Shown: positions 5,585 through 58,969 of the stretch, in pieces
Position numbering within the stretch: the first letter of the stretch is position 1
Layout: each line of letters starts with the position of its first letter
Assembly: GCA_016197205.1 (NCBI GenBank)
Contig: JACPWG010000100.1
Location: forward strand, 8,250 to 72,249
Source: Planctomycetota bacterium
GTDB lineage: Bacteria > Planctomycetota > MHYJ01 > WSZJ01 > JACPWG01
Length of the DNA stretch: 64,000 nt
Reading direction: 5' to 3'
Translations under genes and position numbers: made by a program
Notes under the pieces: model-generated
The model's input: the letters and a program-made list of their open reading frames with translations, nothing else
What the model was told of the DNA's origin: nothing
Database searches by the model: none

Positions 5585-6145
5585 CTACTTCGCCGCTTCG
5601 CTCTTCTTGATCAGGCCGCACGCGATCCGCGCGCCGGCGTTCCCCGTCGGATCGGTCGTCTCGTCGTCCACCTTTTCGTGGATCATGAGGCAGGTGCCGT
5701 TCCCCTCCAGCAGGGAATTCTTCCCCGCGCCGAGGATCACCAGCGGGGCCTGCACCTCCGCCGCGCACTTGCCGTCGTCGCCCACCGTGATGTTGCCCAG
5801 GTCGCCCGCATGCGGGCCGTCCGGGTTCTTGGCGCCGTGCTTCTTCCCGAACGGGTTGAAGTGCCCGCCCGAGGACTTGAAATCGGGCGCCTCGCACTTG
5901 CCCGCTTCGTGGATGTGGAAGGCGTGCACGCCGGCGGGAAGGCCGGAGAGGTCGACCTTGATCGAGACGCCCTTCTCTCCTTGAGTGAACGTCGCCGTCC
6001 CGACCTTCTGGCCCTTGCCGTCCACCAACTCCGCCGTGGCGGTCAGGGGCTTGGGCGCGTCCTCGGCCACGGTCCGCTGCGAGAGGCCGGCCAGGCAGCC
6101 AACCGCGAGTGCGGACACGATCACGAGCATCCAACCGTACTTCAT
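5585..6145 (-). CDS. sodC: Cu/Zn superoxide dismutase with signal peptide
   Basis: HAFHIHEAGKC...GGHFNP...HAGDLGNI...ACGLI motifs are present. A strong RBS AAAGGAG lies 6 nt upstream of the ATG. Confidence 0.92.
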   Translation of the reverse strand: MKYGWMLVIVSALAVGCLAGLSQRTVAEDAPKPLTATAELVDGKGQKVGTATFTQGEKGVSIKVDLSGLPAGVHAFHIHEAGKCEAPDFKSSGGHFNPFGKKHGAKNPDGPHAGDLGNITVGDDGKCAAEVQAPLVILGAGKNSLLEGNGTCLMIHEKVDDETTDPTGNAGARIACGLIKKSEAAK

Positions 6146-8880: not shown

Positions 8881-10266
8881 CTACTCCTCGCCCGCTCCGG
8901 TTCCGGTCGCGGGGCCCGCACCGCAGGTCGATGCCAGGCTCGCGCTCCCGTTCGCGCCCCCGCTCCCACTCACGCCGCCCGATTCCGTCGCCGCGGCCGG
9001 CGCCGGCCCTTCCAAAAACCAGGTCGGCAGCTCGCCTTTCCCTTTGACGACCACGAGCCCGCGCGCCTCGAGCGCGAACTGGCCGTCGAGGGCCGCGCGC
9101 ACCTCCGCCGTCACCTGGATGCGGCCCGGCAGCCCGTGCGACTCCATGCGGCTCGCCGTGTTGACCGTGTCCCCCCACAGGTCGTAGGCGAATTTTCGCA
9201 CGCCGATCACGCCCGCGACCGCCGGCCCGGTGTGCAGGCCGATCCGCAGGTCCACCTGCCGGCCGGTTTCCTCGACGTAGGCCCGGAGGGCGAGACGCAT
9301 GTCCAGCGCCATGCGGGCGACCGCCTGGACGTGATCGTGGCGCGGCACGGGCAGGCCCCCGACGACCATGTAGGCGTCGCCGATCGTTTTTATTTTTTCG
9401 AGGCCGTGCAGATCGGCGAGCCGATCGAACCTGGAGAAGACGTCGTTCAGCATCCGGACCAGCTCCGTGGAGGATTCGCGCGAGGCCAGCGCGGTGAATC
9501 CTACGATGTCGGCGAAAAGGACGGTGACCGCCGGGAAGCTGTCGGCGATGGTGCCGGGCTCGTCCTGGAGCCGGGCCGCAATCGGAGCCGGCAGGACGTT
9601 CAGGAGCAGCCGCTCCGCTTGCGCACGCGCCCGCTCGGTCGCGGCCTCGGCGCGGTCCGTGGCCGCGGAAAAGTAAACGACCATCACCAGCAGGGAGAAG
9701 AGCGTGCCGAGCGTGTTGATGAGCGCGAACGCCTGCAGCGTCCCTGTCGGGACAACGGTCGCAGGCTCCATGTGCAGCCCCGCCCAGGCGACCGCCGCCG
9801 CGACCCCGAAGGCCAGCCCGACGCAGACGACCCGTTCCAGCCATTCGCGGGCGGTGAAGACCAGGAACGGCGCGGCCACGAGGGAAAAATAGTACCCCAT
9901 GTAGCCCGCGGGCGGTCCGAAGAGGAGGGTCAGGCAGACCGCGTGCAGGGCGACTTCGGCGTACACGAGAAACATCGCCGTGCGGCCGTACCCGCGGTGG
10001 ACGCCGGCCAGGATCAGGGCGAAGACGAGGACCGAGCCGCACGAGAGCAACGCGCCCGTGCGCATGCCCAGGGCGAAGAAGATCGAGAGCTGGATGACAT
10101 GCAGCAGGCCGCCGAGCACGGCGGCGGTCGCGCGGAGGGTGAAGAGCCGGGCCTCGTGCGGCGGCAGGCCCGCGGGCGCCCGCAGGAAGGGCAGGTCGAG
10201 CAGGCGTGTCAACACAAGCGGCGCGCTCCGTCGAGCCAGGCCCTCACCGGGTGCACGGCCGCCCAT
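8881..10266 (-). CDS. membrane-anchored class III adenylate/guanylate cyclase
   Basis: Polytopic N-terminal domain followed by a CYCc domain (FADIVGFTALAS...KIKTIGDAYMVVGGLP...GDTVNTASRMES). The ATG is at 10266. An alternative TTG lies at 10302. Confidence 0.85.
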   Translation of the reverse strand: MGGRAPGEGLARRSAPLVLTRLLDLPFLRAPAGLPPHEARLFTLRATAAVLGGLLHVIQLSIFFALGMRTGALLSCGSVLVFALILAGVHRGYGRTAMFLVYAEVALHAVCLTLLFGPPAGYMGYYFSLVAAPFLVFTAREWLERVVCVGLAFGVAAAVAWAGLHMEPATVVPTGTLQAFALINTLGTLFSLLVMVVYFSAATDRAEAATERARAQAERLLLNVLPAPIAARLQDEPGTIADSFPAVTVLFADIVGFTALASRESSTELVRMLNDVFSRFDRLADLHGLEKIKTIGDAYMVVGGLPVPRHDHVQAVARMALDMRLALRAYVEETGRQVDLRIGLHTGPAVAGVIGVRKFAYDLWGDTVNTASRMESHGLPGRIQVTAEVRAALDGQFALEARGLVVVKGKGELPTWFLEGPAPAAATESGGVSGSGGANGSASLASTCGAGPATGTGAGEE

Positions 10267-10810
10267 GCCTCTTCCCGCCGCGACCACCCGCGAGGAGGCC
10301 AAAGGAAGCGCCCCCGGCCGGTGTCCAATGGGGGCGCGTGGCTCTTGGCGGCACGTCTAAAGGACTTGCTAGTGGCCCGTCTACGCCTATTCTGCTAATT
10401 CGCCGGGCGCTCGGTGGGGGTCGGCTGGCTCCCGTCAGGTAGAGCATTCAGGGAACCCGTTCGATGCGCTTGTCATCCCTTCGGCCCGGCTCAGGGCAGG
10501 CTCTGAGCGAAGCGAAGCGCCGCAGCGCGGAGCGAAGTGAAGGATCCAAACCAAGCGTAGCGACCGCTTTTCTCGACAGGGCACTGGCTGCAACTTGAAA
10601 TGTCGCGCGCACAAACTATCCCTGGCCCTGGCTGCGCCGCGCTGCTGTCGCAGGCAGCAGGCGCGGCAGGCAGGCTTGGCGACCTTGTCAAATTCGTCAG
10701 GGCGTTCGAACGCAGCAGGAAGCGTGATAGAAATCACAAAGGGATGAACAGGGTCCCTTTACGGCTATGTGTTGCAATCATTCCCGGCTCCTGCTATCCT
10801 GACTGCTGTC

Positions 10811-11647
10811 ATGAATGCAAAAAGAGCTGGCAGTCGTCCCCTTGTGCGTACGGACGGGTACGCAACTCTCTCGGCACTGGTCGACGCCTACCAAGCGTCG
10901 GGGCGCTACGTGCTGCTGCGCCGGGAGGCGCTCACCTCCCTGGGGGCTTCGGCCGAGGCCGTGAAGAAAGCGGTCCAGCGACTTGAATCCAAGCGCCGGC
11001 TCGCCGTGCCACGACGCGGATTCTTCGCGATCGTGCCCGTCGAGTATCGCGACGCGGGAGCCCCGCCGGCCAGTTGGTACATCGACCCGCTGATGAAGTT
11101 CCACGGCCGGCCGTACTACGTCGGCCTCTTGAGTGCAGCCGCCATCCATGGGGCCGCCCACGAGCAGCCCCAGGAATTCCAGGTTGTGACCCTGGGACAA
11201 CTTCGCCCTGCCGTTTCCGGGCGCGCGCGCATCCGATTCTTCACCAAGCGCGGCGTCGAGCGCACGCCGACCATGGAAATGCGGACGGAGACGGGGGCCA
11301 TGCGCGTGTCAACGCCCGAGGCTACCGCCCTCGACCTGCTCCGCTACCCCCTCGGCGCGGGTCATCTCGGGAACATCGCCACGGTGTTGAGTGAACTGGC
11401 CGAGAAGATGGACCCCGAGCGTCTCGCCGACGTGGCCCGATCGGAAGGGGAGCTTTCGGCGGCGCAACGGCTGGGCTACCTGCTGGAGCAGGTAGGCGCC
11501 CCTCAGGTGGCGGGCTCGCTGGAGTCCTTCGTGTCGAAGCAGCACCCACGATACGTGCGTCTTCGCCCGGATCGGTCCGCGAAAGGGGCGCCGAAGAACG
11601 CGCGCTGGCATGTTCTGGTGAATGAAGAAGTGGAGACGGAGGCATGA
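10811..11647 (+). CDS. abiEi: AbiEi antitoxin-like transcriptional regulator (type IV TA)
   Basis: RRGFFAIVPVEYRDAGAPPASWYIDPLMKFHGRPYYVGLLSAAAIHGAAHEQPQEFQVV matches the AbiEi family. The stop overlaps the downstream start as ATGA. GC is lower than in neighbouring genes. Confidence 0.8.
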   Translation: MNAKRAGSRPLVRTDGYATLSALVDAYQASGRYVLLRREALTSLGASAEAVKKAVQRLESKRRLAVPRRGFFAIVPVEYRDAGAPPASWYIDPLMKFHGRPYYVGLLSAAAIHGAAHEQPQEFQVVTLGQLRPAVSGRARIRFFTKRGVERTPTMEMRTETGAMRVSTPEATALDLLRYPLGAGHLGNIATVLSELAEKMDPERLADVARSEGELSAAQRLGYLLEQVGAPQVAGSLESFVSKQHPRYVRLRPDRSAKGAPKNARWHVLVNEEVETEA

Positions 11648-12473
11648 TCCCGCGCGCGCACATCACGGCATGGCGCGCGAAGGCGCCGTGGTCCACCGAT
11701 GCGCAGGTCGAACAGGACCTTGTCGTGTGCCGAGCCGTCGTGGATCTCTTCTCGAGCGACCGGCTGGCCAGGAAGTCGCTTTCCGGGGAGGAACGGCCCT
11801 TCACAAACTGTACCTGGCTCCACCGGCGCGGTACTCGGAGGACATCGACCTGGTCCAGGTCTCGGCGAGCCCGATCGGCGGCATCATGGACGCCGTGCGC
11901 GAACGACTCGACCCATGGCTCGGCAAGCCCCAGTGGAAACAGGGTCAGGGCCGCGTGACCATCGTCTACCGATTCCAGACGGAAACCTTGCCGGTCACGC
12001 CCCTGCGGCTGAAGGTCGAGATCAACACCCGGGAGCACTTCTCCGTACTGGGCTCGCCACGGCGCAGGTTCGAGGTCGCCAATCCGTGGTTCACAGGCGC
12101 CGCCGAGGTCCTCGGCTACGTGCCGGAGGAACTGCTCGGCACGAAGCTGCGGGCTCTCTACCAGCGCAAGAAGGGGCGCGACCTGTTCGACCTGTCCGAG
12201 GCCCTCGTTCGACTTCCGGCTTTGGCTCCGGATAAGATCGTGGACTGCTTCACGTGCTACTTGGAGAAGGACGGGCTCCGCGTCACGCGAACGGAGTTCG
12301 AGCAGAATCTCGCCGAGAAGATCGAGGACAAGGCCGTTCTCGCCGACGTGCCGCCGCTTCTCGCCATCGGCACTTCGTTCGATCCCCGTGCCGCCTACGA
12401 CCGCGTGCGCGAGACCCTGCTTTCGCGCCTCCCGGAGGGCTCCTCGCGAAAGAAGAATCGTCGAAACCCATGA
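11644..12473 (+). pseudogene. abiEii: AbiEii/AbiGii nucleotidyltransferase toxin gene interrupted by a -1 frameshift near 11775
   Basis: Frame A (11644) reads the conserved N-terminus MIPRAHITAWRAKAPWSTDAQVEQDLVVCRAVVDLFSSDRLARK. The family continuation LAFRGGTALHKLYLAPPARYSEDIDLVQ lies in frame B (ORF 11622). One nucleotide is missing after AAG at 11773-11775. Confidence 0.75.
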
Positions 12474-12904
12474 AGGGCGGGCACCCAGAACGTCCTCCGG
12501 ATCGCGGCCGGTCCGTCGTCTGGTCTCTCTGCCGGAGACCTACCCTCCTTCGCGCTCCGCGCTTCGGCCGTCCGGCCGGAGGCGAGTTAGGATCGTCGGA
12601 GCCTGGGGCCCACGCCTTCGGCGGCTATTGGATGACGGCCCGTGATCGGCAGAGAGAGGGAGAGTTCGGAAGTGATGTGGCCGGGGTCCCGGGGCCGACC
12701 GGCCTTCGCCCTGCGGGCTACGGCGGACAAGCCGTGGGGGTTGGCTTCGGTCCCCAAAGCTCTCGGCTCCGAACGGAGGGTGCTCCCCGATACGGGACCG
12801 CGCGGAAGGGCATGGTGGGTTGGCCAGATACACGACGACCCCGGCGGATGGGCGACCGGGGTCGGCGTCAAACGCGGGCCGCAGTTTTTCGGCGGTTGGA
12901 AGGT

Positions 12905-12979
12905 TGGCTCCCCGGGCAGGACTCGAACCTGCAACACCGCGGTTAACAGCCGCGTACTCTACCATTGAGCTACCGGGGA
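12905..12979 (-). tRNA. tRNA-Asn (anticodon GTT)
   Basis: The rc reads TCCCCGG-TA-GCTCAATGGTAGAGT-A-CGCGG-CTGTTAA-CCGCG-GTGTT-GCAGGTTCGAGTCCTGC-CCGGGGA-G-CCA. It folds into a cloverleaf with a 7-bp acceptor stem, a T-loop TTCGAGT and an encoded CCA. Confidence 0.85.
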
Positions 12980-13464
12980 GTGAAGAGCGGCCATTTTATC
13001 GACGGAGGGGCCGAAGTCAAGCGGTTTCCAGTTCGAGGGCCTGCGCCGGCTCGCGGACCGCCGGCGTTTCATGCGGGAAACGCTTGGGTCGGGCCAGGGG
13101 CGAGCGTGGCGAGGTAGGGCCGGGGAAGACGAAGCGAGCACAGCATCCGCGGGCCCGGGGGGGGAATACAGATGCAGGTCCCGGTGTTCGGAATGCTGTA
13201 CGCGGCCCTGCGCTCGCCGGCAGATGTCCCTCGAAACCGATTCCTGCCACCTGTCCCCGCATGGCACAGGCTGACCTCCGGCTGGGACACTTGCCGGGGA
13301 GGGGATGTGGCAGCGGACGGCTCCACAGCGCGCAAGATTATCGGGAGAAAGGGGATGCGTGGCAGGCGAAAAGCACGCTGCATGTGGCCGCAGATTTGCG
13401 TTTCGACCCGGAGACCTACGAAATGTGAGTCCCCGACACGGCAACCCCTCGTAAGGAGCTCGTC

Positions 13465-13824
13465 ATGACGAAGATGCTTGCTTCCGGACTTGTCGGACTG
13501 GTGATGGCGCTCGCCATGCCCGCCGCGAGCGCCGACCACTACTCGAACACGTACTACCCGCCTTGTGGGTCCACGACCGTCACCTACGCGCCGGCCTACT
13601 ACACGCCGACGTACTACGCACCCACCTACTACACGCCGACCTACTACGCCCCGACCTACTACAGCCCTTGCACGACCACGACCTACTACACGCCCACCTA
13701 CTACCAGACCACGACCTACTGCCCGCCGACCTACTACGCGCCCACCTACTACCGCAGCGGGTCCTCCTTCTCCTATCGCTACTCCAGCGGGTGCTCGTCG
13801 TTCGGCTTCTCCTACCGCCGCTAG
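13465..13824 (+). CDS. small secreted Tyr/Thr/Pro-rich repeat protein (PTYY(A/T) repeats)
   Basis: RBS AAGGAG 7 nt upstream. Signal peptide MTKMLASGLVGLVMALAMPAASA. At least eight PTYY repeats, four Cys, very high GC3, and a terminator directly downstream. Confidence 0.7.
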   Translation: MTKMLASGLVGLVMALAMPAASADHYSNTYYPPCGSTTVTYAPAYYTPTYYAPTYYTPTYYAPTYYSPCTTTTYYTPTYYQTTTYCPPTYYAPTYYRSGSSFSYRYSSGCSSFGFSYRR

Positions 13825-13877
13825 CCGAGCACGAGCCGCAGCCTCTCGGCCCCTCGCCATACCCCCGGTGCTCCAGC

Positions 13878-13912
13878 GGGAGCGGCACTCGCCGCTCCCG
13901 CTTCTTTTTTTT
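13878..13912 (+). terminator. rho-independent terminator
   Basis: GGGAGCGGC-ACTC-GCCGCTCCC hairpin followed by GCTTCTTTTTTTT. Confidence 0.65.
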
Positions 13913-14176
13913 ACGCCCCAACGCGCGAGCCGTTACGAATCCGGACGGCGGGCCGTTACGACGCGTAGCGGCGGCGGAATCGAAACCAGACCGGGCCGAC
14001 GGGCTGCTTCCGAAATTCATCGCAACATACCTGCCAACAGCATGTTGCAATCTCATTAGAATTCGACGCCATTGGGCACCACGCTTGCATTCTGGGTAGG
14101 GCGTCCTCAACAAGATGAGTCGCAACCAGGTTCAGAAAAAGGAGACAGGCCCCCCCGAGGGCGACAACCGAGCCCC

Positions 14177-14222
14177 GATCTTCTTCCCCGGGGACCGTCA
14201 CCAGGTGTGTGGCCTGGTGACC
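14177..14222. repeat. long perfect palindrome/hairpin (about 19-bp stem)
   Basis: CCCCGGGGACCGTCACCAGG-TGTGTGG-CCTGGTGACCCCCGGGG. Confidence 0.6.
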
Positions 14223-14281
14223 CCCGGGGAAGTTACTTACGGACCGCGCGACCGGCCGCACACCGCGCCGCCGCTGGGCGG

Positions 14282-14323
14282 AAATCCCAAATCCCAAATC
14301 CCAAATCCCAAATCCCAAATCCC
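14282..14323 (+). repeat. tandem heptamer array (AAATCCC)x5 plus AAATCAG
   Basis: Perfect 7-nt periodicity. An AT-rich island in a GC-rich genome. Confidence 0.9.
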
Positions 14324-14334
14324 AAATCAGGCGT

Positions 14335-14440
14335 GCGCCCGAAACCCAAAATGGAGGAAATAGCCACCGAACACGCCGAAGACGCCGAAATGCACGACAG
14401 GCCGTTCGGTGTCTTCGGCGAGTTCGGTGGCTCGTTCCCC
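14335..14440. repeat. diverged copy of the GC-core of repeat family A (..CGAAATGCAC..GGTGTCTTCGGCGAGTTCGGTGGCTCGTTCCCC)
   Basis: Aligns to 30781-30837 and 36530-36583. Confidence 0.5.
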
Positions 14441-14712
14441 CGTGGGCGGAGCGCACGGCTGCCGAAATCGGGACAGGCTTTCAAGAAGCCGAACGATAGG
14501 GACCCAAATCGCACGGCGCCGAAGTAGATACGGGTAGGAAGGCTCAAGGCTCAACGCCTGGGGCTTCGACGCCCGGGGCAGACTCCGGATCGTCGGCAGG
14601 ATCGAAGCCGGGGAGGCACAAGAACCTGCCGAGACCGCTCCCTCACGGTCGCGGTTCGGTGTAGGGCGGCCACACGTCGGGCGACCTTGGCGGGGCGGTG
14701 GTCGTAGGCTTG

Positions 14713-14748
14713 CCAAATCTCAATTCTCAATTCTCAATTCTCAAATCC
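14713..14748 (+). repeat. tandem heptamer array AAATCTC-(AATTCTC)x3-AAATCCC
   Basis: Perfect 7-nt periodicity. It abuts the 3' end of the esterase gene. Confidence 0.85.
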
Positions 14749-14752
14749 CCCA

Positions 14753-17131
14753 TCACTTTCCGCCGCCGACCGGCAGCACCACGCGGTTCGCGTAGAGGAC
14801 GTCTCGCTCTCCGCGCTGACGAGAAGTCTCCAGCAAGTGCCCGACGCTCCGCGCCGGCTTCCCCTGCCACCGGATCGCGCCGTCCAGCCGGACGACGATC
14901 GGCTGGTCCAGGTCGAGCAGCCGATCCGCGAGTTGCACGGTCACTTCACGGACGTTCGACGAAACCGAAAGCAGGACCTCGTTCCCGCGGATCTCGCCGG
15001 TCACTCGTCCCGGAGTGTTCAACAGCGTCCGCTGTTCGATCGCGTCGCCGTCCGGCCCTTGCACGCTCAACACCGTCTGCCGCAGGCTCGTGAGGCCCGC
15101 CAGCTCCACCCAGCACGACCGCGAGTACTGCTCCTCACGCGTCACGAACGTCACCTTGCGCGGGTATGGGTTCCGGCGGCGCGCCTGCATCCACTCCACG
15201 ACACGCTCGTTTTCGTCCGCGAAGTGCTCGTGCCCGCGGCCCGCGAACTCCCGGTACGTCACGTCGTACCCCTCGTCGCGCAGCCGCGCGCAGCCTTTGC
15301 GAGGGGCCTCCGGACTCACCATCGTGTCCTGGTCGCCGTTCATCGACAGCACCGCGACGCCGAAGAGGTTGTCGATCAAGTCCATGACCCGGAGCGGCGA
15401 GCCCGACCGCGGCACGATCCCCGCCCAGCGATCGGGAAAGGCCACTCCCAGGATCCAGCACATGTGCGCCCCCATCGACATCCCTTCGAGGAAGACGCGA
15501 TCCGGATCCACATGAAACGTCCGGCGCACGTCCGCGGCGACGGCGAGGACCAGCGACTCGCTCGCGCGCGAATGGCCGAAGCCGATCCGCCGCTCGGCGG
15601 TCGGGCACGCGACCAGGAAGTCCAGCGTGCTCAGGCGCCGGCCCCAGGAGTAGACCTGCACGTCGCCCGTGGCGTGCGTCGGATGCAGCGAGATCAGCAG
15701 CGGCCAGGACTTCGCCGGGTCGTAGCCGACGGGAATCGAAAGCAGGTACTCGGTGCGGCCGCCGCCCAGGGGACAGGTCACCGGGACGCGCCGCAGACCG
15801 GTCCGTCCGTCGAAGGGCGCCGGCCGCGTGCCCGGTCCCAGGCGCACGACCGTCTCCACGGCGGCGAAAGGCGCGTGCATCGACTCGATTTCCTGCAAGG
15901 CCGTCGCGGCCGCCGGAGCGGCGGGATCGGTCGCCGACAGGTAGGTCTCGACGGCCTTCTCCAACCGCGCAAGTCCGTCCGCGCCGCCCACGGCCTGGAG
16001 CGGAAAGTCACGGCCGTAGCGGGCGAGGGCCTCGAGGCGTGAGCGCCGCGCTTCATCCTCCGCGGCAACCCCCGCTCCGCCGCCGCCCGCATGCGCGGAG
16101 CGGGCGAGCAGGTCGAGCGCCAGGGCGGCATTCCCCGACTCCTCGGCGGCCCAGCTCGCCTCCCGCGCGAAAGCCGCGTCCCCCTGCAACGACGGCGACG
16201 CGGTCCAAACGCCCAGCGCCCGCGCGGCCAGCCCCAGCTTTCGCAAGCACCGCATGCGCTCGAGCGCGCCGGCCAGGTCCCGCCCCGCGGCGCCGCCGCC
16301 CGCCTCAGGTGTTTCCCCTAGACGCTGGTACGCCCGGATCCGCTCCGGCGCACCCGCGTCCCCGACCGCCCGCGCCATGCGGATCGCCTCTTCCCAGGTC
16401 CCTTGCTCGGCGAAAGCGCGCTCCAGGCCGCGACGCGCCGGCTCCGCGCGGCCCGGGAAGCCGTCGAGCCCGCGGCCGTCGCTCCCCAGCGCGGCCGTCC
16501 ACTCCCGCTCCGCCTCCGCCGCCCGCCCTTCCGCGAGATAAAGCTCCGCCAGCGCGGAGCGCGCGGCGGGGACGCAGGTCGCCTCGGGCGCATCCCGCCG
16601 CAGCGCCGACAGCTTCCCACGGGCCGCGTCAAGCCGGCCCGCGCGCCGCTCGGCCTCCGCTTCCGTCAAGAGCCGCTCCGCCCGCGGATCCAGGAGACGG
16701 CGCAGCGCGGCGAGCGCGACCGCGTGCCCCGGCTTCGAGGCGAGGGCCTCGCGCAGCAGCTCGACGCCGAGGTCCGGAAGGCCCGCCTCGACCGCGCGCG
16801 CGGCGAGCTTGACACGGCCGTCCGCGTCGTCCCTCGCGAGGAGGGCGCGCGCGGCGGCGAGTTCCTCGTCCGGCGTGGCCTTGCGCTCGATGTGGTCGAC
16901 CTGAGACGCCGGGATGGTGGAGATGCCGGTCCGCACCTGAATGCGCACGACGCCGTCCTTCTCTTCGAGGACCTTCCCCTCGATCCGGCCGCCGCTCGTA
17001 AGGTACACGATGTCGGCGCGGACCGCGCGCGCGAGCGGGCCGAGGCCGATTCCGAGCGCCAGGGCGAGGCAGGCGGCGGCCCTTCGCGACCTTCGGCCGA
17101 ACCGTCGGCCAGGCGAAACCGATTGATCCAT
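14753..17131 (-). CDS. secreted TPR-repeat protein fused to an alpha/beta-hydrolase (esterase/depolymerase-like) domain
   Basis: ATG at rc 17129-17131. Signal peptide MDQSVSPGRRFGRRSRRAAACLALALGIGLGPLARA. The middle is Ala/Leu-rich and TPR-like. The C-terminal hydrolase has GMSMGAH (GxSxG). Other ORFs over this span are shadows. Confidence 0.75.
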   Translation of the reverse strand: MDQSVSPGRRFGRRSRRAAACLALALGIGLGPLARAVRADIVYLTSGGRIEGKVLEEKDGVVRIQVRTGISTIPASQVDHIERKATPDEELAAARALLARDDADGRVKLAARAVEAGLPDLGVELLREALASKPGHAVALAALRRLLDPRAERLLTEAEAERRAGRLDAARGKLSALRRDAPEATCVPAARSALAELYLAEGRAAEAEREWTAALGSDGRGLDGFPGRAEPARRGLERAFAEQGTWEEAIRMARAVGDAGAPERIRAYQRLGETPEAGGGAAGRDLAGALERMRCLRKLGLAARALGVWTASPSLQGDAAFAREASWAAEESGNAALALDLLARSAHAGGGGAGVAAEDEARRSRLEALARYGRDFPLQAVGGADGLARLEKAVETYLSATDPAAPAAATALQEIESMHAPFAAVETVVRLGPGTRPAPFDGRTGLRRVPVTCPLGGGRTEYLLSIPVGYDPAKSWPLLISLHPTHATGDVQVYSWGRRLSTLDFLVACPTAERRIGFGHSRASESLVLAVAADVRRTFHVDPDRVFLEGMSMGAHMCWILGVAFPDRWAGIVPRSGSPLRVMDLIDNLFGVAVLSMNGDQDTMVSPEAPRKGCARLRDEGYDVTYREFAGRGHEHFADENERVVEWMQARRRNPYPRKVTFVTREEQYSRSCWVELAGLTSLRQTVLSVQGPDGDAIEQRTLLNTPGRVTGEIRGNEVLLSVSSNVREVTVQLADRLLDLDQPIVVRLDGAIRWQGKPARSVGHLLETSRQRGERDVLYANRVVLPVGGGK

Positions 17132-17323
17132 GCACGCTCCGCGGCTATACTGCCGCATCCTGGCGCTGGGCGCGGTCGTACCCCTTACCCCTGCCCCATC
17201 CCGCTCCCCTCCTTCGCTCGCTGCGGCGAGCTTCGGGGCGCAGGCTGAGGAAGAGGGGGAAGGTCGGCCGACAGCGCTTGCGCTTGGCGAGCCAGGGTCG
17301 CCGAGCCTACCCTTGAGTTCAAC

Positions 17324-18475
17324 ATGTCCGCAACGCACACGAAGCCCCGCGTCGTCGTCGCCATGAGCGGCGGCGTCGATTCGTCCGTCGCCGCGCTTCT
17401 TCTCCATGAGGCCGGCTACGACGTCGTTGGGCTCTTCATGCGCAACGGCATCCACGTCGAGAATCCCCTCACGAAGACCAAGGGCTGCTGTTCGCTCCGG
17501 GACGCGGACGACGCGCGGCGGGTCGCCGATCGGCTTGGCGTTCCCTTCTACGCCGTCGACTTCTCGCGGGACTTCCAGAAGCTCATCGGCGAGTTCGTCG
17601 AGGAGTACAACGCGGGACGCACGCCGAACCCGTGCGTCCGTTGCAACCAGGACCTGAAGTTCGGGAAGCTCCTGGCCTACGCGGAGTCGCTCGGCGCGGA
17701 GGCCGTGGCGACCGGCCACTACGCCCAGGTCGCGGACCGGGACGGCCGGCGCGTGCTGCGGCGCGGTCTCGACGTCACGAAGGACCAATCGTACGTGCTC
17801 TTCCCGCTCGTGCAGGCGCAGCTCCGCAGGACGCTCCTCCCCATCGGCGGCATGACGAAGGCGGAGGTGCGCGAGCGCGCACGCGCCGCCGGGCTCTGCA
17901 CCGCGGAGAAGCGCGAGAGCATGGAGATCTGCTTCGTCCCGGACGACGACTACGGCCGACTCATCGCGGAGCGCACGCCGGACCGCGTCCGCGAGGGGGA
18001 GCTCCGGGACGTCCACGGGCGCGCCCTCGGCCGCCACCCTGGCTACCAGCACTTCACGATCGGCCAGCGACACGGCCTGCGCATCGCCCTCGGCCGGCCG
18101 GCGTACGTGGTCCAGCTCCTGCCGGAGGAGAACGTCGTCGTCGTGGGCTTCGGCGAGGACCTGCTCTCGGCCGGGCTGGTGGCGACGCGCTCGAACTGGG
18201 TCTCGCGAGGCGCGCCCGAGCTCGGCGCCACGGTGCGGGTGGCCGCGAAGATCCGGTCCCACCACGACCCGACCCCCGCGACGGCGACGGTGCTGCCGGG
18301 GGGAGGCGTGCGCGTCGAGTTCGACGAGCCGCAGCGCGCGGTCACGCCGGGGCAGGCGGTGGTCCTCTACGACGGAGACGAGGTCGTTGCGGGCGGCTGG
18401 ATCGATGCGGCCCTGCCCATGACGGGGGCGGCGGCCTCGCGGGCGGCGGAGCTTCGGGCTACGAATCGCTGCTGA
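17324..18475 (+). CDS. mnmA: tRNA-specific 2-thiouridylase
   Basis: VVVAMSGGVDSSVAA P-loop...NPCVRCNQDLKFGKLL...GHYAQ. Full-length match to MnmA. Confidence 0.92.
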   Translation: MSATHTKPRVVVAMSGGVDSSVAALLLHEAGYDVVGLFMRNGIHVENPLTKTKGCCSLRDADDARRVADRLGVPFYAVDFSRDFQKLIGEFVEEYNAGRTPNPCVRCNQDLKFGKLLAYAESLGAEAVATGHYAQVADRDGRRVLRRGLDVTKDQSYVLFPLVQAQLRRTLLPIGGMTKAEVRERARAAGLCTAEKRESMEICFVPDDDYGRLIAERTPDRVREGELRDVHGRALGRHPGYQHFTIGQRHGLRIALGRPAYVVQLLPEENVVVVGFGEDLLSAGLVATRSNWVSRGAPELGATVRVAAKIRSHHDPTPATATVLPGGGVRVEFDEPQRAVTPGQAVVLYDGDEVVAGGWIDAALPMTGAAASRAAELRATNRC

Positions 18476-18699
18476 ACCACGCGCCGCACAATCGCTGCCC
18501 TCCACACACCCAACCCTTTCCAGGTGGGTGAACGGGTCGCCCCTTGCGGCAGGGAACATCGCAGGTCAGACCGCTGGAAGGGTGCGACTCCCGAGTGCCG
18601 GCCTTCGCCGGCTCAAGTGAAAAGGCTACTCGCGGCAGGCGACGGGACGGAGCCACCCCATCGAAGACGCTGACCACGCCTCCGCAGCCCCGCTCCGCG

Positions 18700-19500
18700 T
18701 CACCCCGCCAGGAATTTCTCCAGGTACTCCAGGAAGTTCCCCGCCCGGACCGCTGTCGTGTAGTCGAGGATGGCGAGGCCGTCCATGCGGTAGTTGGGAT
18801 AGCAGGAGGTCGGGGCGGCGCCACGCGGGGCGTGCACGACGAAGTCCACGTCGCGAGCCAGGACGTCGACGCGCCCCTCGGGCAGCTCGGAGGTCGGCAC
18901 GATCTCCTCGGCGCTCAAGATCGTCAGCTCGGCGAGGGCCGCGATTTCGCGGTCGATGCCGTGGTTGCCGAGGAGCACGGCGTTTCCCTCGGCGTCGGCC
19001 TTCTGCGCGTGGACGAAAGCGACCTGCGGGTGGAGCGGGGGGACGGCGAGGAACGATTCGCCGGTGTAGGGGCACTGGACGGTGCGGAGGTCGGGCCGGA
19101 CGCGCGGCACGTCGCTGCCGAGGATGCCGCGGACGGGCAGGAACGGGACGCAGGAGAGGGTGGCGCGGAGGCCGGCGGCGATCGTCGCTTCGGTCTCTTC
19201 GATGAGTTCGATGGAGCCGGCGACGGCGCCGGAGGTGAGGGCGGTGAAGACGGGCGCGAGGCCGAAGCCCTCCAGGCCGAAGTAGCAGGTGCGGACGCGC
19301 GAGACCGCGCCCGCGCCGAGGAGGAGGTCGCTCTCGAGGCCGCAGGTGAGGGCGAGAAGGGTGTGTTCGGAGGTCTTGCGGCGGAGGAGGGCGCGGACGA
19401 GCGCGAGGGGGCGGCGATAGAGGGTCATGCCCCCGAGGGCCAGCATAGAGCCGCGGGGGACTTCGGCGACGGCTCGAGCCGCATCGACCAGGATGCCCAT
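18700..19500 (-). CDS. CoA-transferase family protein (3-oxoacid/glutaconate CoA-transferase subunit-A-like)
   Basis: MGILVDAARAVAEVPRGSMLALGGMTL... ATG at rc 19498-19500. No adjacent subunit-B gene. Confidence 0.65.
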   Translation of the reverse strand: MGILVDAARAVAEVPRGSMLALGGMTLYRRPLALVRALLRRKTSEHTLLALTCGLESDLLLGAGAVSRVRTCYFGLEGFGLAPVFTALTSGAVAGSIELIEETEATIAAGLRATLSCVPFLPVRGILGSDVPRVRPDLRTVQCPYTGESFLAVPPLHPQVAFVHAQKADAEGNAVLLGNHGIDREIAALAELTILSAEEIVPTSELPEGRVDVLARDVDFVVHAPRGAAPTSCYPNYRMDGLAILDYTTAVRAGNFLEYLEKFLAG

Positions 19501-19688
19501 GGTCCCACTCCAGAGAACGGATGGGCTCAAGGGTGGCGACGCTTTCCCGACGCGGGGCACGGCACCGCCGTGCCCCTACAGCCAACGCGGGGCTGGGCGC
19601 CGGGAAGCGAGCAGGGGCCAGGGGGCTGACGTGCGGGTACGGCAGCGCCGCGCCCCTGCCACGAGGAGAGCGGTGACGAGAGCGGCTT

Positions 19689-20880
19689 CTACTTGAACTG
19701 GAACGCGGCGCCGCTCGTGTCCCACCACTCTTTCCAGCGGCGATAGCCTTCCTCCCACTCTTCGGAGCGGGTGGACCAGAGCTTGTAGCCGAAGCTATAG
19801 CCGGTCGCGCTCCGGAGGCCGGAGTAGGCGATCGCCCGCTTGGTCTCCTCGGGGGACTTCAGGTAGCTGATGAGGACCGGGATGCCGTCCTTCGACTTGA
19901 GCAGGACCAGCGCCTCGGCGGTGTAGAACTTGAGGTCGCTGTTGTCGGTCCGCACGCAATCGCGGAGCGCGGGGACGGCCGAGTTGTCGCCGACGCGACC
20001 CAGCACGCGGACGCAGGCGACCTGGAGCTGCGGGTCGACTTCGCGCTTGAGGGCGTCGCTGATGAGGGGGAGGACGTCGCGCGGCTCGAGGGTCGCCAGG
20101 ACGTCGATCGCCGCCGACTGGTAGGTGAAGTCTCGCAGGTAGCCGACGAAGGTCGGCGCCACGAACCTGCTGTAGGGGCGCAACCCGGCGGCGACCGCCT
20201 TGCCGTCCTTGTCCGTCTGGAAGCGCTGCAGCAGTTGGGAGACCTTCTCCTGCGTCGCCGCGTCCGAGATCTGCGGCACCGCGGGTCCGGCGCTCTTGCC
20301 CGCGCCCACAGGAGGGACGGAGCCCCTGGCCGCGCCCGCGCCCGCGCCCGGACCGGCCGCGTCGCCGCCGCCCGTGAGGGCATTGTAGGCGGAGGAGGAC
20401 CCGCCCTTGGCCCCGGGTTCATGGCCGGTCCCGGCGCCGCCGGCGGCTCCCGCCGCGGCGCCGCTCGAGCCCGCGCCCCGCGCGGTCCCGGCCGCGCCCT
20501 TCGGGCTGCCGCCGCCGGCGCCCGCTCCGGCTCCTCGTGCGCCCGGCACGGGGCCCGGCTGCGCCGCGCCTGCGGACGGCCCGGCCTCGCCGTAGCTCCC
20601 CACCGGGTCCTGGCCGGCGGTGGGCACCGACCGCGGATACGTCGTGGGGACCGTCTCCCGGCCGCCCCCCTGCGCCAGCCGGTCGCTCAGCGCCGACACC
20701 TGACGGCGCACATCCTCGATGTCCCGACGGTTCTGCTTCACGCTCTCCTCGATGAGGTCCAGCCGATTGTCCGCCGTTGCCGGCGGCCTCGGCGCGGGTT
20801 CCTCCTTCTTGCCGCCGAACATCGAACAGCCGCACAAGAGGGCCATCCCGAGAAGCGCGATCATTCCCCTTGCGAACATG
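19689..20880 (-). CDS. HEAT-repeat lipoprotein with a Gly/Ala-rich low-complexity linker
   Basis: MFARGMIALLGMALLCGCS lipobox. C-terminal HEAT/PBS-lyase-like repeats (VACVRVLGRVGDNSAVPALRDCV...). Confidence 0.6.
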
Positions 20881-20949
20881 ACGACCTCCAACCACCGCTT
20901 GCAGGACAGGCGAATACCGGGTGCCGGCTGCCGGGTGCCCGGACGCGGG

Positions 20950-21205
20950 CCCCCCCGGATCACGTCGAAAATCCCAAATCCCAACTCGGGCGAAGGCCCG
21001 AAACCCAAACGGACGACGAAACCACCAAGCCACCAAGGCACGAAGACCACGAAGGACCGTCACTGAGGGGGGCGAGTTTGGCCCGGCCGAAATGCGCCTT
21101 TGTGGTCTTAGTGACTTCGAGTCTTTGTGGTTTCGTCGCCTGCGAATCTGGATACGCTTTCAAGAAGTTCACAGGTAAGTGTCGAAATCCCAAATCTCAA
21201 TTCCG
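20950..21205. repeat. composite intergenic repeat block: AAATCCC heptamers, then a 45-bp inverted repeat (GACGACGAAACCACCAAG...), then AAATCCC/AAATCTC heptamers
   Basis: The arms 20998-21045 and 21094-21138 are reverse complements. It shares CGACGAAACCACA with 30540-30560. Confidence 0.6.
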
Positions 21206-22261
21206 AAAGCGCACTTCCCGGTCGCCCGCCACCACCTTCCCGAGGACGTAGGCCCGCTCCCCCGCCTTCTCCAGCCGCCGGATCGCGACGTCCACGAAGT
21301 ACGGATCCAGGAGGAGGACCATCCCGATCCCGAGGTTGAAGACGCGGCGCATCTCGGCCTCCTCGATGCCGCCCTGCTCCTGGACCCAGCCGAAGATCGG
21401 GGGCACGGGCCAGCTACCCGTCCTGACGTCCACGGCGCAGCCGGCCGGGAGCACGCGCGGGACGTTTTCGACCATCCCACCGCCCGTGATGTGGGCCATC
21501 GCCTTCACGCACCGGCGCGCATTGTGCGCGCGCGTGGCGTCGCGCAGCGCGCGCGCGTAGATCCGCGTCGGCTTGAGCAGCTCCTCGCCGAGGGTACAGC
21601 CCAGCGCCGGGACCACGGCGTCGAGCTTCACCTTCGACCGCTCCACGACCTTGCGCACGAGCGAGTAGCCGTTCGAGTGGAGCCCCGACGAGCCGATCCC
21701 CACGACCACGTCCCCGGGGACCACGGTCTTTCCGTCCAACAGCCGGCCCTTCTCGACCACGCCCACCGCGAAGCCCGCGAGATCGTACTCGCCGTCCTTG
21801 TAGAAGCCCGGCATCTCCGCCGTCTCCCCGCCGAGGAGCGCGCACCCGGACTGCTCGCACCCGGCCACGATCCCCTTCACCACGTCGAGCAGGACCCCCT
21901 CCTGGGCCTTGCCCGTCGCGATGTAGTCGAGAAAAAAAAGCGGCTCGGCCCCCGTGACCAGCAGGTCGTTCACGTTCATCGCCACCAGGTCGATCCCGAC
22001 CGTGTCGTGCTTGCCCAGCTCGTGCGCGAGGCGCAGCTTCGTCCCGACGCCGTCCGCGCAGCCGACCAGGACCGGGCGGCGGTAGGTCTTCCGGAAGATC
22101 GGGCTCTCGCCGTTCAACGAGAAGAGGCCCGCGAAGCCCCACGGGTTGTCGATGACGCGCGGACCGTACGTGCGCTTCATCATGTGGAGGATCTTGTCGA
22201 CGACGCCGTCCTTGCGGGACTGGTCGACGCCGGAGTCCTGATAGGTCAGGCCCTTCGCCAT
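21197..22261 (-). CDS. purM: phosphoribosylformylglycinamidine cyclo-ligase (AIR synthetase)
   Basis: MAKGLTYQDSGVD...GVGTKL...DLVAMNVNDLLVTGAEPLFFLDY. Full-length. Confidence 0.93.
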   Translation of the reverse strand: MAKGLTYQDSGVDQSRKDGVVDKILHMMKRTYGPRVIDNPWGFAGLFSLNGESPIFRKTYRRPVLVGCADGVGTKLRLAHELGKHDTVGIDLVAMNVNDLLVTGAEPLFFLDYIATGKAQEGVLLDVVKGIVAGCEQSGCALLGGETAEMPGFYKDGEYDLAGFAVGVVEKGRLLDGKTVVPGDVVVGIGSSGLHSNGYSLVRKVVERSKVKLDAVVPALGCTLGEELLKPTRIYARALRDATRAHNARRCVKAMAHITGGGMVENVPRVLPAGCAVDVRTGSWPVPPIFGWVQEQGGIEEAEMRRVFNLGIGMVLLLDPYFVDVAIRRLEKAGERAYVLGKVVAGDREVRFRN

Positions 22262-26427: not shown

Positions 26428-27069
26428 TCACCGACTTCCGTGGAGCGGTACGTAGTCGCGAGGAGCCTGGACCACCCGCTCCCCCAACAAGCGGGTGTGT
26501 CCGATCACTCCGTTCAACGCATCGAGGATGTCCAGGAATACCGCGGCGGCCTCCGGCCGGCAATGACCGCTCAGGAGGCGATCCTCGTGGTCGAGCGCGA
26601 ACTTCTCGATCGACACCCGAAGCGTTCCGCCCGTGTCCTGGATGTATTTGGCCAGGACGGTATTCCTCGTGAGCAGGGTGTCCTTCGCGCAGCGCAGCAG
26701 ATACTGGGCGCTCTCGAAAAGGAACCCCAGTTCGTGGTTCGCCTGGTCGCTGAAGGGCACCCGGTCCCGCATCTTCGACTCGACGCAGTGGAGCGCCACG
26801 TCCAGCTCGCCGCCGATGCGGCCCAGATGGCCGACCGCGGCCACCAGTACCTTCAGGCTCGGTCGTGCCTCGGGGGTGGTCTTTGCCCGCTCCGCCAGCG
26901 CCCCGATCAGGTCCCGTTCGTCGTTCCGCACCACCGCCCCCATCTTCTCCGACATCTCCCCCAGCTCCACCTTCTCGTGCCGCAAGGCCTCGAAGGTGAG
27001 CTGAAGCATTTCCTCCGCGTGCTTCGCCATCAGACAAACGCGATTGTCGAGCTCGCGGAAGCCGTCCAT
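26428..27069 (-). CDS. PhoU-like / DUF47-family protein
   Basis: Two helical PhoU-like repeats (MDGFRELDNRVCLMAKHAEEML...). The ATG is at rc 27067-27069. Confidence 0.5.
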   Translation of the reverse strand: MDGFRELDNRVCLMAKHAEEMLQLTFEALRHEKVELGEMSEKMGAVVRNDERDLIGALAERAKTTPEARPSLKVLVAAVGHLGRIGGELDVALHCVESKMRDRVPFSDQANHELGFLFESAQYLLRCAKDTLLTRNTVLAKYIQDTGGTLRVSIEKFALDHEDRLLSGHCRPEAAAVFLDILDALNGVIGHTRLLGERVVQAPRDYVPLHGSR

Positions 27070-46635: not shown

Positions 46636-47385
46636 ATGGACCCGCTCGACCCCACCACTGCGCTCACGCGCCGTCAGATGACCGCCGTCGACAAGCTGGC
46701 AACGGCACGCCTCGGCATGCCCTCGCTCCTCCTCATGGAGAACGCGGGGCGCGGGATCGCGGACGTGGTGCGGGCCATCGCCGGCGCGGGTCCGGGCCGG
46801 CCGCCGCTCATCCTCGTCGTGTGCGGTCACGGGAACAACGGGGGGGACGGGTACGTCGTCGCCCGCCGCTTGCTGCTCCACGGCGATAGCGTGCGCGTCC
46901 TCGTCGTCGGCCGGGAGGACGAGATCCGCGGCCGCGGTGACGCGGGCGTGAATCTCGAGATCGCGGCGCGCATAGGCGTGCCGATCGAGTTCACCGACAG
47001 GATGGACCGGCGCGACGTGGAGGCGCGGATCGCCTCCGCGTGGTTCCTCGTGGACGCGCTCTTCGGCACCGGCCTCTCGCGCCCGGTCGAGGGGATGGCG
47101 AAGGACGTGATCGGCTGGATGAACCAACGCGGCCGGTCCGTGCCGATCGTCGCGGTGGACATCCCGTCGGGCCTTGACTGCGACACGGGCGAGGTCCTCG
47201 GCGACGCCGTCCGCGCGGTCGTGACCGTCACGGTGGCCGCTCCGAAAACGGGTTTTTTCCGTGGCGAGGGGCCGCGTCTGGTCGGTGAACTGCGACTCGT
47301 CGATTTCGGCGTCCCGCTCGGCCCGCTGCGCGCCGCGCTCGCGGAGTCGCCGGAGGGGCGGGCCGACCAGAGATTTGAGATTTGA
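46636..47385 (+). CDS. nnrE: NAD(P)H-hydrate epimerase (YjeF N-terminal domain)
   Basis: VVCGHGNNGGDGYVVARRL...VDALFGTGLSRPV...VAVDIPSGLD. The stop lies inside an AGATTTG heptamer array. Confidence 0.8.
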   Translation: MDPLDPTTALTRRQMTAVDKLATARLGMPSLLLMENAGRGIADVVRAIAGAGPGRPPLILVVCGHGNNGGDGYVVARRLLLHGDSVRVLVVGREDEIRGRGDAGVNLEIAARIGVPIEFTDRMDRRDVEARIASAWFLVDALFGTGLSRPVEGMAKDVIGWMNQRGRSVPIVAVDIPSGLDCDTGEVLGDAVRAVVTVTVAAPKTGFFRGEGPRLVGELRLVDFGVPLGPLRAALAESPEGRADQRFEI

Positions 47386-47415
47386 GATTTTGCAATTTGA
47401 ATTTTGAGATTCGAT
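47371..47415 (+). repeat. AGATTTG heptamer array / Rpt200 core fragment (AGATTTGAGATTTGAGATTTTGCAATTTGAATTTTGAGATTCGA)
   Basis: Matches the Rpt200 internal block GAAATTTGAGATTTGAAATTTGACTTTTTGCAATTTGAAATTCGA. Confidence 0.75.
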
Positions 47416-57859: not shown

Positions 57860-58969
57860 TCAGTAAGGGCTTTGCGGAAGAAAAAAGACCCGGGAGAGGA
57901 TGCGCTCTTGACGCTCCGGCGCTCCGTCCGTCATCCGGAAAGTAAACCGGAGCGCATAGGGGAGCGTCTCATTCTGCGGATCATCAATGGGGCTGGAGTA
58001 GCCTGGAGGGAGGAAGTTCGCCACTCGAAAGACCGGCTCATTGCCGCCAACGCCGCCCGTCGGCCGTGCCCAGAGGGCCTCGATGTTCATGGAGAGGATG
58101 TACTGGCCGATGTCTCCGCTGTCGAGCACGAGGAGGTTGGGATCCTGGGGCCCGGTCGTCAGGAGGCCGTCATTCGCCGTGACCGTCACGTTCGGCGGGG
58201 GATTGCCCGGGCCCGGCACCAGCGGAGGCGGCACGAACGGGGCGAAGCCGTTCGCGTAGCCCGCCAGCGTGGGTTGAAAATTGGGGTTGACCTGCGGGAT
58301 CCGATAGACGAGGCGGCGAAGAACGAACAGCCACCGGAGGCGGGGGTTGCCGGTATTGTTGTCGAAACCCACCGTGCGCGAAGTCGCGAAGTTTGTCGCC
58401 ACCTCGTTCACGGCTGGATCGGAATCGGGCACGAGCCGGTACAGGATGTGGACCTTCTGGATCCACCGGTTGTCCATGCGATCCGGGGCGCCGACCCCCA
58501 GCGGGTCATGAATGGGAATGTTGGCGCGGAACTGCAGACGGTCTCCCGCCGGGCTGCGCCAGGACAACCCTTCCGTGTTCGGCAGCGGCTGTGTCGTATC
58601 GCCGTCAAAATTCTCCAGAATGAACCTCTGCCCTTGGGTGAGCGGGGCGACACCGGCCAGATCGCGCTCGATGATCTCGATCAGGGTCCGTGCGTTTGCG
58701 TAGATCGAGAGCCGTGCGCTCGCCGTCTCGGCGATCTGGGAGGAGCCCGTGAGAATCAACGCCACGGTCCCGACCATGAGGGTCGACAAGCCGATGGAGA
58801 CCATGAGTTCGATGAGGGTGAACGCACCAACGCGGCGAGGCGAGTGGGGACTTGGGCCGCGCAGCCAGGTGCGGGCAGGGCTCGGCACCGGGAGAGGGCG
58901 CGCAGGCAACGCCGCCGAATCGGGAGGCAAACCGTTTTCCCGCGCGTCGGCCGCGGGACGGCTCGGGAT
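57860..58969 (-). CDS. prepilin-type N-terminal cleavage/methylation domain protein (pseudopilin B)
   Basis: AGGAG RBS 7 nt upstream of the ATG. GAFTLIELMVSIGLSTLMVGTVALIL class-III signal motif with an unusually long leader of about 55 aa. Confidence 0.7.
   Translation of the reverse strand: MPSRPAADARENGLPPDSAALPARPLPVPSPARTWLRGPSPHSPRRVGAFTLIELMVSIGLSTLMVGTVALILTGSSQIAETASARLSIYANARTLIEIIERDLAGVAPLTQGQRFILENFDGDTTQPLPNTEGLSWRSPAGDRLQFRANIPIHDPLGVGAPDRMDNRWIQKVHILYRLVPDSDPAVNEVATNFATSRTVGFDNNTGNPRLRWLFVLRRLVYRIPQVNPNFQPTLAGYANGFAPFVPPPLVPGPGNPPPNVTVTANDGLLTTGPQDPNLLVLDSGDIGQYILSMNIEALWARPTGGVGGNEPVFRVANFLPPGYSSPIDDPQNETLPYALRFTFRMTDGAPERQERILSRVFFLPQSPY

Follow-up and report, generated by a model that had tools for sequence, protein, structure and literature searches.

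A gene for an exported Tyr-rich PTYY-repeat protein in an uncultured planctomycete, with a possible structural role in the cell envelope

Secreted low-complexity proteins with Tyr- and Pro-rich repeats are, as a general kind, already familiar. Plant extensins and the mussel protein Mfp-1 are secreted, extended and non-globular, consist of short tandem repeats rich in Pro, Tyr and Thr, and use Tyr as the residue for cross-linking or adhesion. Low-complexity segments of the FUS type, in which Tyr is accompanied by Ser, Gly, Thr and Arg in [S/G]Y[S/G] motifs and no fold is predicted, occur in phase-separating proteins that are eukaryotic and either cytoplasmic or nuclear. The PXPV family (Pfam PF12778) comprises small exported proteobacterial proteins with a signal peptide and short repeats rich in Pro-x-Pro-Val/Tyr. 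CopQ and MmmQ of Cupriavidus are small metal-induced proteins with the motif RDXXTDG (PMC2864759). Planctomycete walls have been reported to consist mainly of protein, and the Cys-rich YTV proteins of Planctomycetales (PF07639), which are exported, contain Tyr and Thr besides Cys and are candidate parts of the protein-rich wall, were found in wall preparations (PMC8567305). Investigating 64 kb of contig JACPWG010000100.1 from an uncultured planctomycete (the whole stretch is called the window in the following), we analysed a gene for a small Tyr-rich protein with PTYY repeats, which an earlier note had described from the sequence alone as a novel secreted repeat protein.

The open reading frame (ORF) in question, 13465-13824 on the plus strand, is with high confidence a real, monocistronic gene of this organism. 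Its full translation, MTKMLASGLVGLVMALAMPAASADHYSNTYYPPCGSTTVTYAPAYYTPTYYAPTYYTPTYYAPTYYSPCTTTTYYTPTYYQTTTYCPPTYYAPTYYRSGSSFSYRYSSGCSSFGFSYRR, agrees with the 119 amino acids, the signal peptide, the at least eight repeats, the four Cys residues and the C-terminal tail listed in the earlier note. The GC content at codon positions 1, 2 and 3 (37/62/92%) is what a genuine coding frame shows in a genome of 68% GC; a ribosome-binding site lies 5' of the start codon, and the hairpin of the intrinsic terminator has a folding energy of -40.3 kcal/mol (z = -4.9 relative to shuffles, none of which folded equally well). Together with the signal peptide and the 92% GC at third codon positions, these signals uphold the previous description of a self-contained expression unit. 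A scan of 12980-13452 for the sigma-70 consensus gave no site on the plus strand, and a permissive Rfam scan of 12950-14800 found no RNA family, including any upstream riboswitch or small RNA.

The number of tandem repeats is far beyond chance. Tandem Repeats Finder reported a 15-nt period with 11.3 copies, with periods of 15, 30 and 45 nt over 13584-13753, and a second repeat search gave 11 in-register copies over 13551-13767 (family D1). Codon differences among the eight repeat units are synonymous in 21 cases and non-synonymous in 7, and 22 of the 29 nucleotide differences lie at third codon positions; because the units differ mostly synonymously, the peptide repeat is kept by selection and not by recent slippage. 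A contig from an independent assembly (Logan contig L001, run SRR12113391) is 100% identical to window positions 12903-14306, so the repeat is not an assembly artefact of the metagenome-assembled genome (MAG). An exact-sequence look-up placed the protein on a Logan contig and nowhere else, and the same was true of mnmA, so that the NCBI contig is perhaps not covered; it is possible that the deposited NCBI annotation lacks a call for the Tyr-rich gene.

The precursor starts with MTKMLASGLVGLVMALAMPAASA, followed by DH; a single basic residue (Lys), a hydrophobic stretch and the A-S-A site for cleavage were recognised by eye and with a regular-expression heuristic. Since inspection of the N-terminus revealed neither a lipobox Cys nor a twin-arginine motif, the signal peptide is of the Sec type, cleaved by signal peptidase I (SPase I), and export as a lipoprotein or by the Tat (twin-arginine translocation) pathway was rejected. 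The core GLVGLVxALAAPxASA is kept in two close relatives of equal length, P0002 and P0003, and AlphaFold2 (AF2) modelled residues 2-16 as helical with a predicted local distance difference test score (pLDDT) of about 88. In the wider class of relatives treated below, for which all counts refer to 97 members, a simple heuristic recognised a signal-peptide-like N-terminus in all except one (96/97). In our judgement, both the gene and the export of its product are very probably real. Sorting to the outer membrane or cell surface was rejected as well, as the protein ends in ...FSYRR and carries no aromatic beta-signal, PEP-CTERM or LPXTG motif or C-terminal transmembrane segment; the C-terminal residue is F, W or Y in 35 class members.

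The mature part (96 amino acids) contains 26 Tyr (27%), 21 Thr (22%), 12 Ser (12.5%), 12 Pro (12.5%), 5 Ala and 4 Cys (C34, C69, C86 and C110) as well as a single His, and it lacks Lys, Glu, Leu, Ile, Met and Trp; acidic residues are nearly absent and the net charge is basic. With Tyr making up 22% of the whole precursor, the protein was rightly called Tyr-rich, while the earlier figure of about 30% was slightly high. The repeat region opens with the mature N-terminus DHY..CGSTTVTYAP, and its eight xP(T/A)YY units are seven PTYY and one PAYY, besides which degenerate NTYY, TTYY and TTTY are found. For the C-terminal tail, RSGSSFSYRYSSGCSSFGFSYRR, alignments to those of P0002 (SSFYYRSGSGGSSWGF) and P0003 (TSFYYNQRSRGSSWGFSF) score z = 4.5 and 3.4, respectively, over composition-preserving shuffles; S101, F102, Y104, S108, S111, S112, G114 and F115 are invariant columns, and the motif SSFxYxxxSxxSS(W/F)GF is common to all three proteins. 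A six-frame regular-expression search of the window gave no paralogue, and two ORFs with similarly odd GC at the first two codon positions (26633-27004 and 58041-58259) proved to be unrelated shadow ORFs.

The repeat of the Tyr-rich protein is PTYY and not PxPV, and the PXPV model has no match to it at E<=10; 96 of the class members have none at E<=0.01 and one has a match at E = 5.9e-5. The YTV proteins are much larger and have a defined Cys-rich domain, whereas the Tyr-rich protein contains only four Cys; here too, the model does not match it at E<=10, nor any class member (0/97) at E<=0.01. The sole Pfam signal over the protein is Extensin_1 (PF02095), with 19.2 bits (E = 1e-3) against a cutoff of 105, and no SPPP motif is present, so that homology to extensins was rejected. 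Unlike extensins and Mfp-1, the protein also lacks Ser-Pro(3-5) and Lys-rich decapeptide motifs, and a Pfam scan of 39 of 40 candidate ORFs, picked across the 64 kb by codon-position GC, found no hydroxylase, tyrosinase or peroxidase partner. The part of the tail reading SSFSYRYSSGCSSFGFSY resembles the [S/G]Y[S/G] motifs of FUS-type segments; unlike these segments, the Tyr-rich protein is Sec-exported and punctuated by Pro. CopQ and MmmQ were rejected as counterparts on the basis of their different motif.

No Pfam family covers the protein, NCBIfam gave no match, and PDB sequence searches with the single protein or a profile returned only noise (E>0.04), for example from a nanobody and from Toxin A repeats. 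The same holds for the class, as Pfam and NCBIfam scans of its members revealed no covering family; tblastn against plasmids with the low-complexity filter on found no match, and the repeat family is not described in the searchable literature. The family is thus new to Pfam, NCBIfam, PDB and the searchable literature, and the statement that it belongs to no described family stands, with the PDB sequence and fold searches likewise empty. The novelty once ascribed to the repeat protein nevertheless holds for the undescribed family and not in the sense of a one-off, since a HMMER profile search of 1.84 billion representatives retrieved 94 proteins at E<1e-3. P0003 and P0002, which belonged to the query alignment, scored E = 2e-35 and 2e-15, respectively, and the best independent match scored E = 5e-12. 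A word-indexed search of 5.8 billion clusters yielded four weak matches, a profile built from the three close members yielded no further close member from the same clusters, and a scan of genomes with the single protein gave 5 loci. P0002 and P0003 (119 amino acids each, from another metagenome) have the same architecture from start to stop, including signal-peptide core, repeat body and tail. Mature-region alignments with relatives score z = 5-12 above composition-preserving shuffles, so the order of residues, and not composition alone, is common to the relatives.

The class (P0001-P0096 and the Tyr-rich protein) has a recognisable design: a median length of 118 amino acids (about 90-150), a signal peptide, central (A/P)PxYY repeats with PxYY(A/T)P pentads, and a tail which is either basic and rich in Gly, His and Arg or resembles SFSFGFGY. 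At least 4 His within the last 40 residues are present in 40 of the 97 members, and alternating aromatic/small motifs such as SFSFGFGY in 50. Pooled mature parts contain (in %) Y 18, P 13, G 11, R 9.5, A 9, V 7, S 6.5 and H 5; Lys, Glu, Leu, Ile and Met are nearly absent, and the median net charge is +6. The N-terminus of the Tyr-rich protein (ADHYSNTYYPPCGSTTVTYAPAYYTPTYYAP) parallels that of P0001 (ADHYVRSCGTSYVSYAPTYYTPTYYAP), and the pattern ADHY..CG..V.YAPxYYTPTYYAP of the P0001 group is found in both. The protein shares with the class the signal peptide, the length with at least 3 PxYY units, a similarity beyond composition and the stand-alone gene, and differs from it by its Thr content (22% versus 4%), its number of PTYY-type units (8 versus a median of 3), the lack of Val, Gly, Arg and His richness and the missing His tail. 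By these features it stands at the Thr-rich extreme of a loose class without a name, which is present in several Gram-negative phyla. Source names point to Planctomycetota MAGs (P0004; L006-L008), to the betaproteobacterium Caenimonas sp. SL110 (L009) and to a MAG of Chlamydiota (L010), and every member is a 'hypothetical protein' by source name. The four Cys, named in the heading of the earlier note, do not define the class, as 44 members lack Cys altogether.

A ribosome-binding site of the GGAG/AGGAG type and a strong GC hairpin downstream were found in all five loci examined (the window, L002, L011, L012 and L013), which marks the genes as monocistronic units. No neighbouring gene is common to all loci examined, and the window locus shows no synteny with those of P0002 or P0003. 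In the syntenic pair P0004/P0005 the class proteins are 60% identical, in comparison to 84% for the flanking MgtE and 82% for DUF72, implying a gene that is kept but evolves fast. The absence of a partner enzyme beside the Tyr-rich gene, as formerly reported, was confirmed, and a wider look for tyrosinase, peroxidase or radical-SAM partners, which the earlier note had suggested, found none among the window ORFs scanned; laccase, YcaO and lanthipeptide enzymes were likewise missing there. The gene product probably acts without a partner and is probably well expressed, as far as gene architecture can indicate. A DUF72 (YecE-like) gene adjoins a small Tyr-rich gene in two lineages (L002/L008/L021 and L013), in tandem order in one and convergent in the other, with DUF72 proteins about 30% identical; the window contains no DUF72 gene, and the adjacency could be coincidence or a weak conserved linkage.

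Regarding structure, AF2 run with the 97-sequence alignment reached a mean pLDDT of 64 and a predicted template-modelling score of 0.24, and it contained no helix or strand beyond the signal-peptide helix. The repeat core was drawn as an extended chain with pLDDT 70-80; the mature part alone was modelled at pLDDT 48 with a few strands of low confidence, and Foldseek against the PDB gave 0 matches. The models thus offer no evidence of a beta-helix, for which the earlier note had advised a structure prediction, or of any globular fold. Pentapeptide-repeat proteins (Pfam PF00805), whose A(D/N)LXX repeats form a quadrilateral beta-helix, were rejected as a template on the same grounds, with no Pfam match, no compact AF2 fold and no Foldseek match.

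Taking these data together, we tentatively propose that a real monocistronic gene encodes here a disordered, self-associating protein of the cell envelope or matrix, a statement which as a whole is plausible and falls short of probable; the structural, self-associating role on its own is a possibility that we regard as somewhat doubtful. According to this proposal, Sec export and cleavage between ASA and DH would free the mature chain into the periplasm or cell envelope, where a Pro break every five residues would hold it extended. Roughly a dozen Thr-Tyr-Tyr triplets could act as multivalent 'stickers', with the alternating aromatic/small tail as a further one, and these would promote self-association, or binding of envelope polymers, in the periplasm or wall. 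Stacking and hydrogen bonding of the Tyr side chains would hold the material together, and the four Cys, possibly in combination with oxidative Tyr coupling, could fix the assembly covalently. The likeness to adhesive or cross-linkable structural peptides, which the earlier note had pointed out, would thus still be the most plausible reading. The protein would then be an abundant component working alone, with neither a dedicated enzyme nor a secretion partner, and such a role would fit the cell wall reported for planctomycetes, rich in protein and resistant to sodium dodecyl sulphate (SDS).

It should also be noted that several points weigh against the self-association proposal. The mature protein may either remain periplasmic or reach the outside of the cell. 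The His-rich tails of 40 relatives would point to metal binding rather than to structure, and the absence of Cys from so many class members weakens the disulfide part of the model. A model in which AF2 finds no fold is no proof of disorder. With three members among 5.8 billion clusters in the close subfamily, there is only thin evidence that precisely this protein is conserved, and the similarity within the wider class may partly reflect convergent low-complexity composition, especially in the most distant members.

The main rival is a periplasmic peptide that buffers metals or redox reactions, in which the Asp-His N-terminus, the four Cys and the many Tyr residues would serve as ligands of Cu, Ni or Zn or as radical quenchers, and in which relatives would do so by their His/Gly/Arg-rich tails. 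His at position 2 is also found in the Cu(II)-binding peptide Gly-His-Lys, and (D/G/A/S)H directly follows the predicted cleavage site in 28 of the 97 members, the Tyr-rich protein included; the frequent His-rich tails and a periplasmic-type Cu/Zn superoxide dismutase encoded 7 kb away are further points in its favour, though no evidence links the latter to the Tyr-rich gene. However, the protein itself has a single His and lacks a His-rich tail, its gene is not flanked by genes of metal resistance or transport, the MgtE gene beside P0004/P0005 reflects lineage-specific synteny, and the PxYY repeat, not the His tracts, is what the class conserves as its core, all of which makes this explanation unlikely. 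A further proposal would place the protein outside the outer membrane, as an adhesive that glues cells to surfaces or as a binder of peptidoglycan or exopolysaccharide through stacking of Tyr on sugars, after the manner of mussel foot proteins and plant extensins. Planctomycetes attach by holdfasts, the Tyr/Pro/Thr-rich pentads are like the Mfp-1 decapeptides and the cross-linking motifs of extensins, the only Pfam signal is Extensin_1, and a basic chain nearly devoid of acidic residues would suit this role. Yet the Extensin_1 score lies far below its cutoff, a signal for outer-membrane or surface sorting is missing, no secretion-system genes are nearby and the window ORFs scanned include no tyrosinase or peroxidase which could form 3,4-dihydroxyphenylalanine (DOPA) or isodityrosine; we therefore consider an adhesive or glycan binder quite unlikely.

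Two further explanations can largely be set aside. The earlier note had also been reminded of precursors of ribosomally synthesised and post-translationally modified peptides (RiPPs), in which case an enzyme whose gene lies elsewhere in the genome would modify the Tyr/Cys-rich core. The protein is indeed small, repetitive, Cys-containing and fast-evolving, but it begins with a classic Sec signal peptide in place of a leader, and genes for radical-SAM, YcaO, LanM, cyclase or protease/exporter proteins are absent from the scanned ORFs of the window, nor is a modifying enzyme conserved beside the relatives; a mature length of 70-120 amino acids with at least 10 repeats is moreover atypical for RiPP cores, and a RiPP origin is extremely improbable. 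The other explanation is that no functional gene exists, the ORF being a chance or shadow frame over a 15-nt tandem repeat or a fragment of a larger protein. High-GC genomes give many long spurious ORFs, four other ORFs overlap this locus, and some larger exported proteins likewise carry the PTYY module at their beginning or end (L006, 378 amino acids; L007, 341; P0015, 274). But the long overlapping ORFs are ordinary high-GC shadow frames, and only the frame described combines the 37/62/92% GC pattern with ribosome-binding site, signal peptide and terminator; the synonymous bias of the repeat units, the equal-length relatives of the same architecture and the syntenic orthologues kept in another lineage likewise speak for a gene. 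The window gene has a start and a stop, a signal peptide and a terminator of its own and so is no fragment of a larger protein, an outcome that would have overturned the first description. The spurious-ORF or fragment explanation is largely refuted and very improbable.

Table 1. Positions of the Tyr-rich gene, its parts and the other genes discussed (window coordinates, except for rows naming another locus)
Feature	Position	Strand	Remarks
Tyr-rich gene, coding sequence	13465..13824	+	119 codons and TAG stop; based on ORF list, translation, GC at third codon positions, synonymous variation and relatives
Ribosome-binding site AAGGAG	13453..13458	+	6 nt 5' of ATG; read from sequence
Sec-type (SPase I) signal peptide, residues 1-23	13465..13533	+	predicted cleavage between ASA and DH
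Tyr/Thr/Pro repeat region, residues 24-96	13534..13752	+	eight xP(T/A)YY pentads, three Cys (C34, C69, C86)
C-terminal tail, residues 97-119	13753..13821	+	contains C110; aromatic and small residues alternate
Intrinsic terminator	13875..13912	+	12-bp stem (10 GC pairs) at 13875-13902, then T8
Upstream intergenic, presumed promoter region	12980..13452	+	between tRNA-Asn and Tyr-rich gene
Cu/Zn superoxide dismutase (Sod_Cu, E = 1.6e-42)	5585-6145	-	7 kb upstream; periplasmic-type redox enzyme
Adenylate cyclase	8881-10302	-	
AbiEi antitoxin	10769-11647	+	
AbiEii toxin	11622-12473	+	
tRNA-Asn(GTT)	12905-12979	-	
Secreted protein, weak Peptidase_S9 match	14753-17104	-	
mnmA	17324-18475	+	
Coenzyme A (CoA)-transferase	18700-19560	-	
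HEAT-repeat protein	19689-21050	-	
AIR-synthase-related protein (AIRS domains)	21197-22261	-	
DUF72 and small Tyr-rich gene, L002	10001-11359		
DUF72 and small Tyr-rich gene, L008	4999-6131		
DUF72 and small Tyr-rich gene, L021	5001-6351		
DUF72 and small Tyr-rich gene, L013	6001-7141		

The window stems from a poorly sampled lineage: its MnmA is 100% identical to a protein of an NCBI MAG labelled 'Planctomycetes bacterium', and beyond that the best MnmA reaches only 63-65% identity. The scan of 39 of 40 candidate ORFs brought up housekeeping and signalling genes. An AbiEi/AbiEii type IV toxin-antitoxin pair is located on the 3' side of tRNA-Asn(GTT), and between 10400 and 12979 the GC content (0.62-0.66) and the GC content at third codon positions (0.76-0.78) lie below those of the surrounding genes; this AbiE stretch could represent a small island integrated at the tRNA, and no flanking direct repeat of the tRNA-Asn end was found at it. 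Downstream of the Tyr-rich gene, the heptanucleotide AAATCCC is repeated in tandem six to seven times at 14282-14330, and (AAATCCC)n with its variants (AATTCTC)n/(AAATCTC)n occupies intergenic sites at 14282-14330, 14715-14749, 20969-20982, 21185-21198 and 47370-47390 (11 matches versus 0.19 expected by chance). The end of Logan contig L001 falls at 14306, within the array, and points to a repeat dispersed through the genome. Between the terminator of the Tyr-rich gene and the convergent gene of the secreted hydrolase lies a 37-nt inverted repeat (14353-14441, 86% complementary, 15-nt loop) without an Rfam match. The ORF of that hydrolase formally encodes 1268 amino acids (14753-18559, minus strand) and is gene-like only in its downstream part of about 783 amino acids, which includes a signal peptide; the upstream part is a high-GC shadow frame overlapping mnmA on the opposite strand.

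What emerges is an orphan gene that is well documented and whose putative role is plausible; it can serve as the basis for a new family model and demonstrates no new mechanism. Speculatively, and in our opinion improbably, PxYY proteins as a whole might form a widespread, unrecognised bacterial envelope material, a counterpart of extensins and resilin: periplasmic or surface stickers, in many cases with an N-terminal X-His copper site, which would condense or be oxidatively cross-linked through Tyr or Cys into a gel or wall layer. Tyr-rich, Pro-punctuated exported peptides would suggest themselves as candidates for biomaterials that self-assemble or can be cross-linked. Should the class prove to be what it seems, a recurrent, abundant and partner-free component of the Gram-negative envelope is being labelled 'hypothetical' by annotation pipelines, and, if the proposed role is true, PxYY proteins could add to the long-puzzling protein-rich, SDS-resistant wall of planctomycetes.

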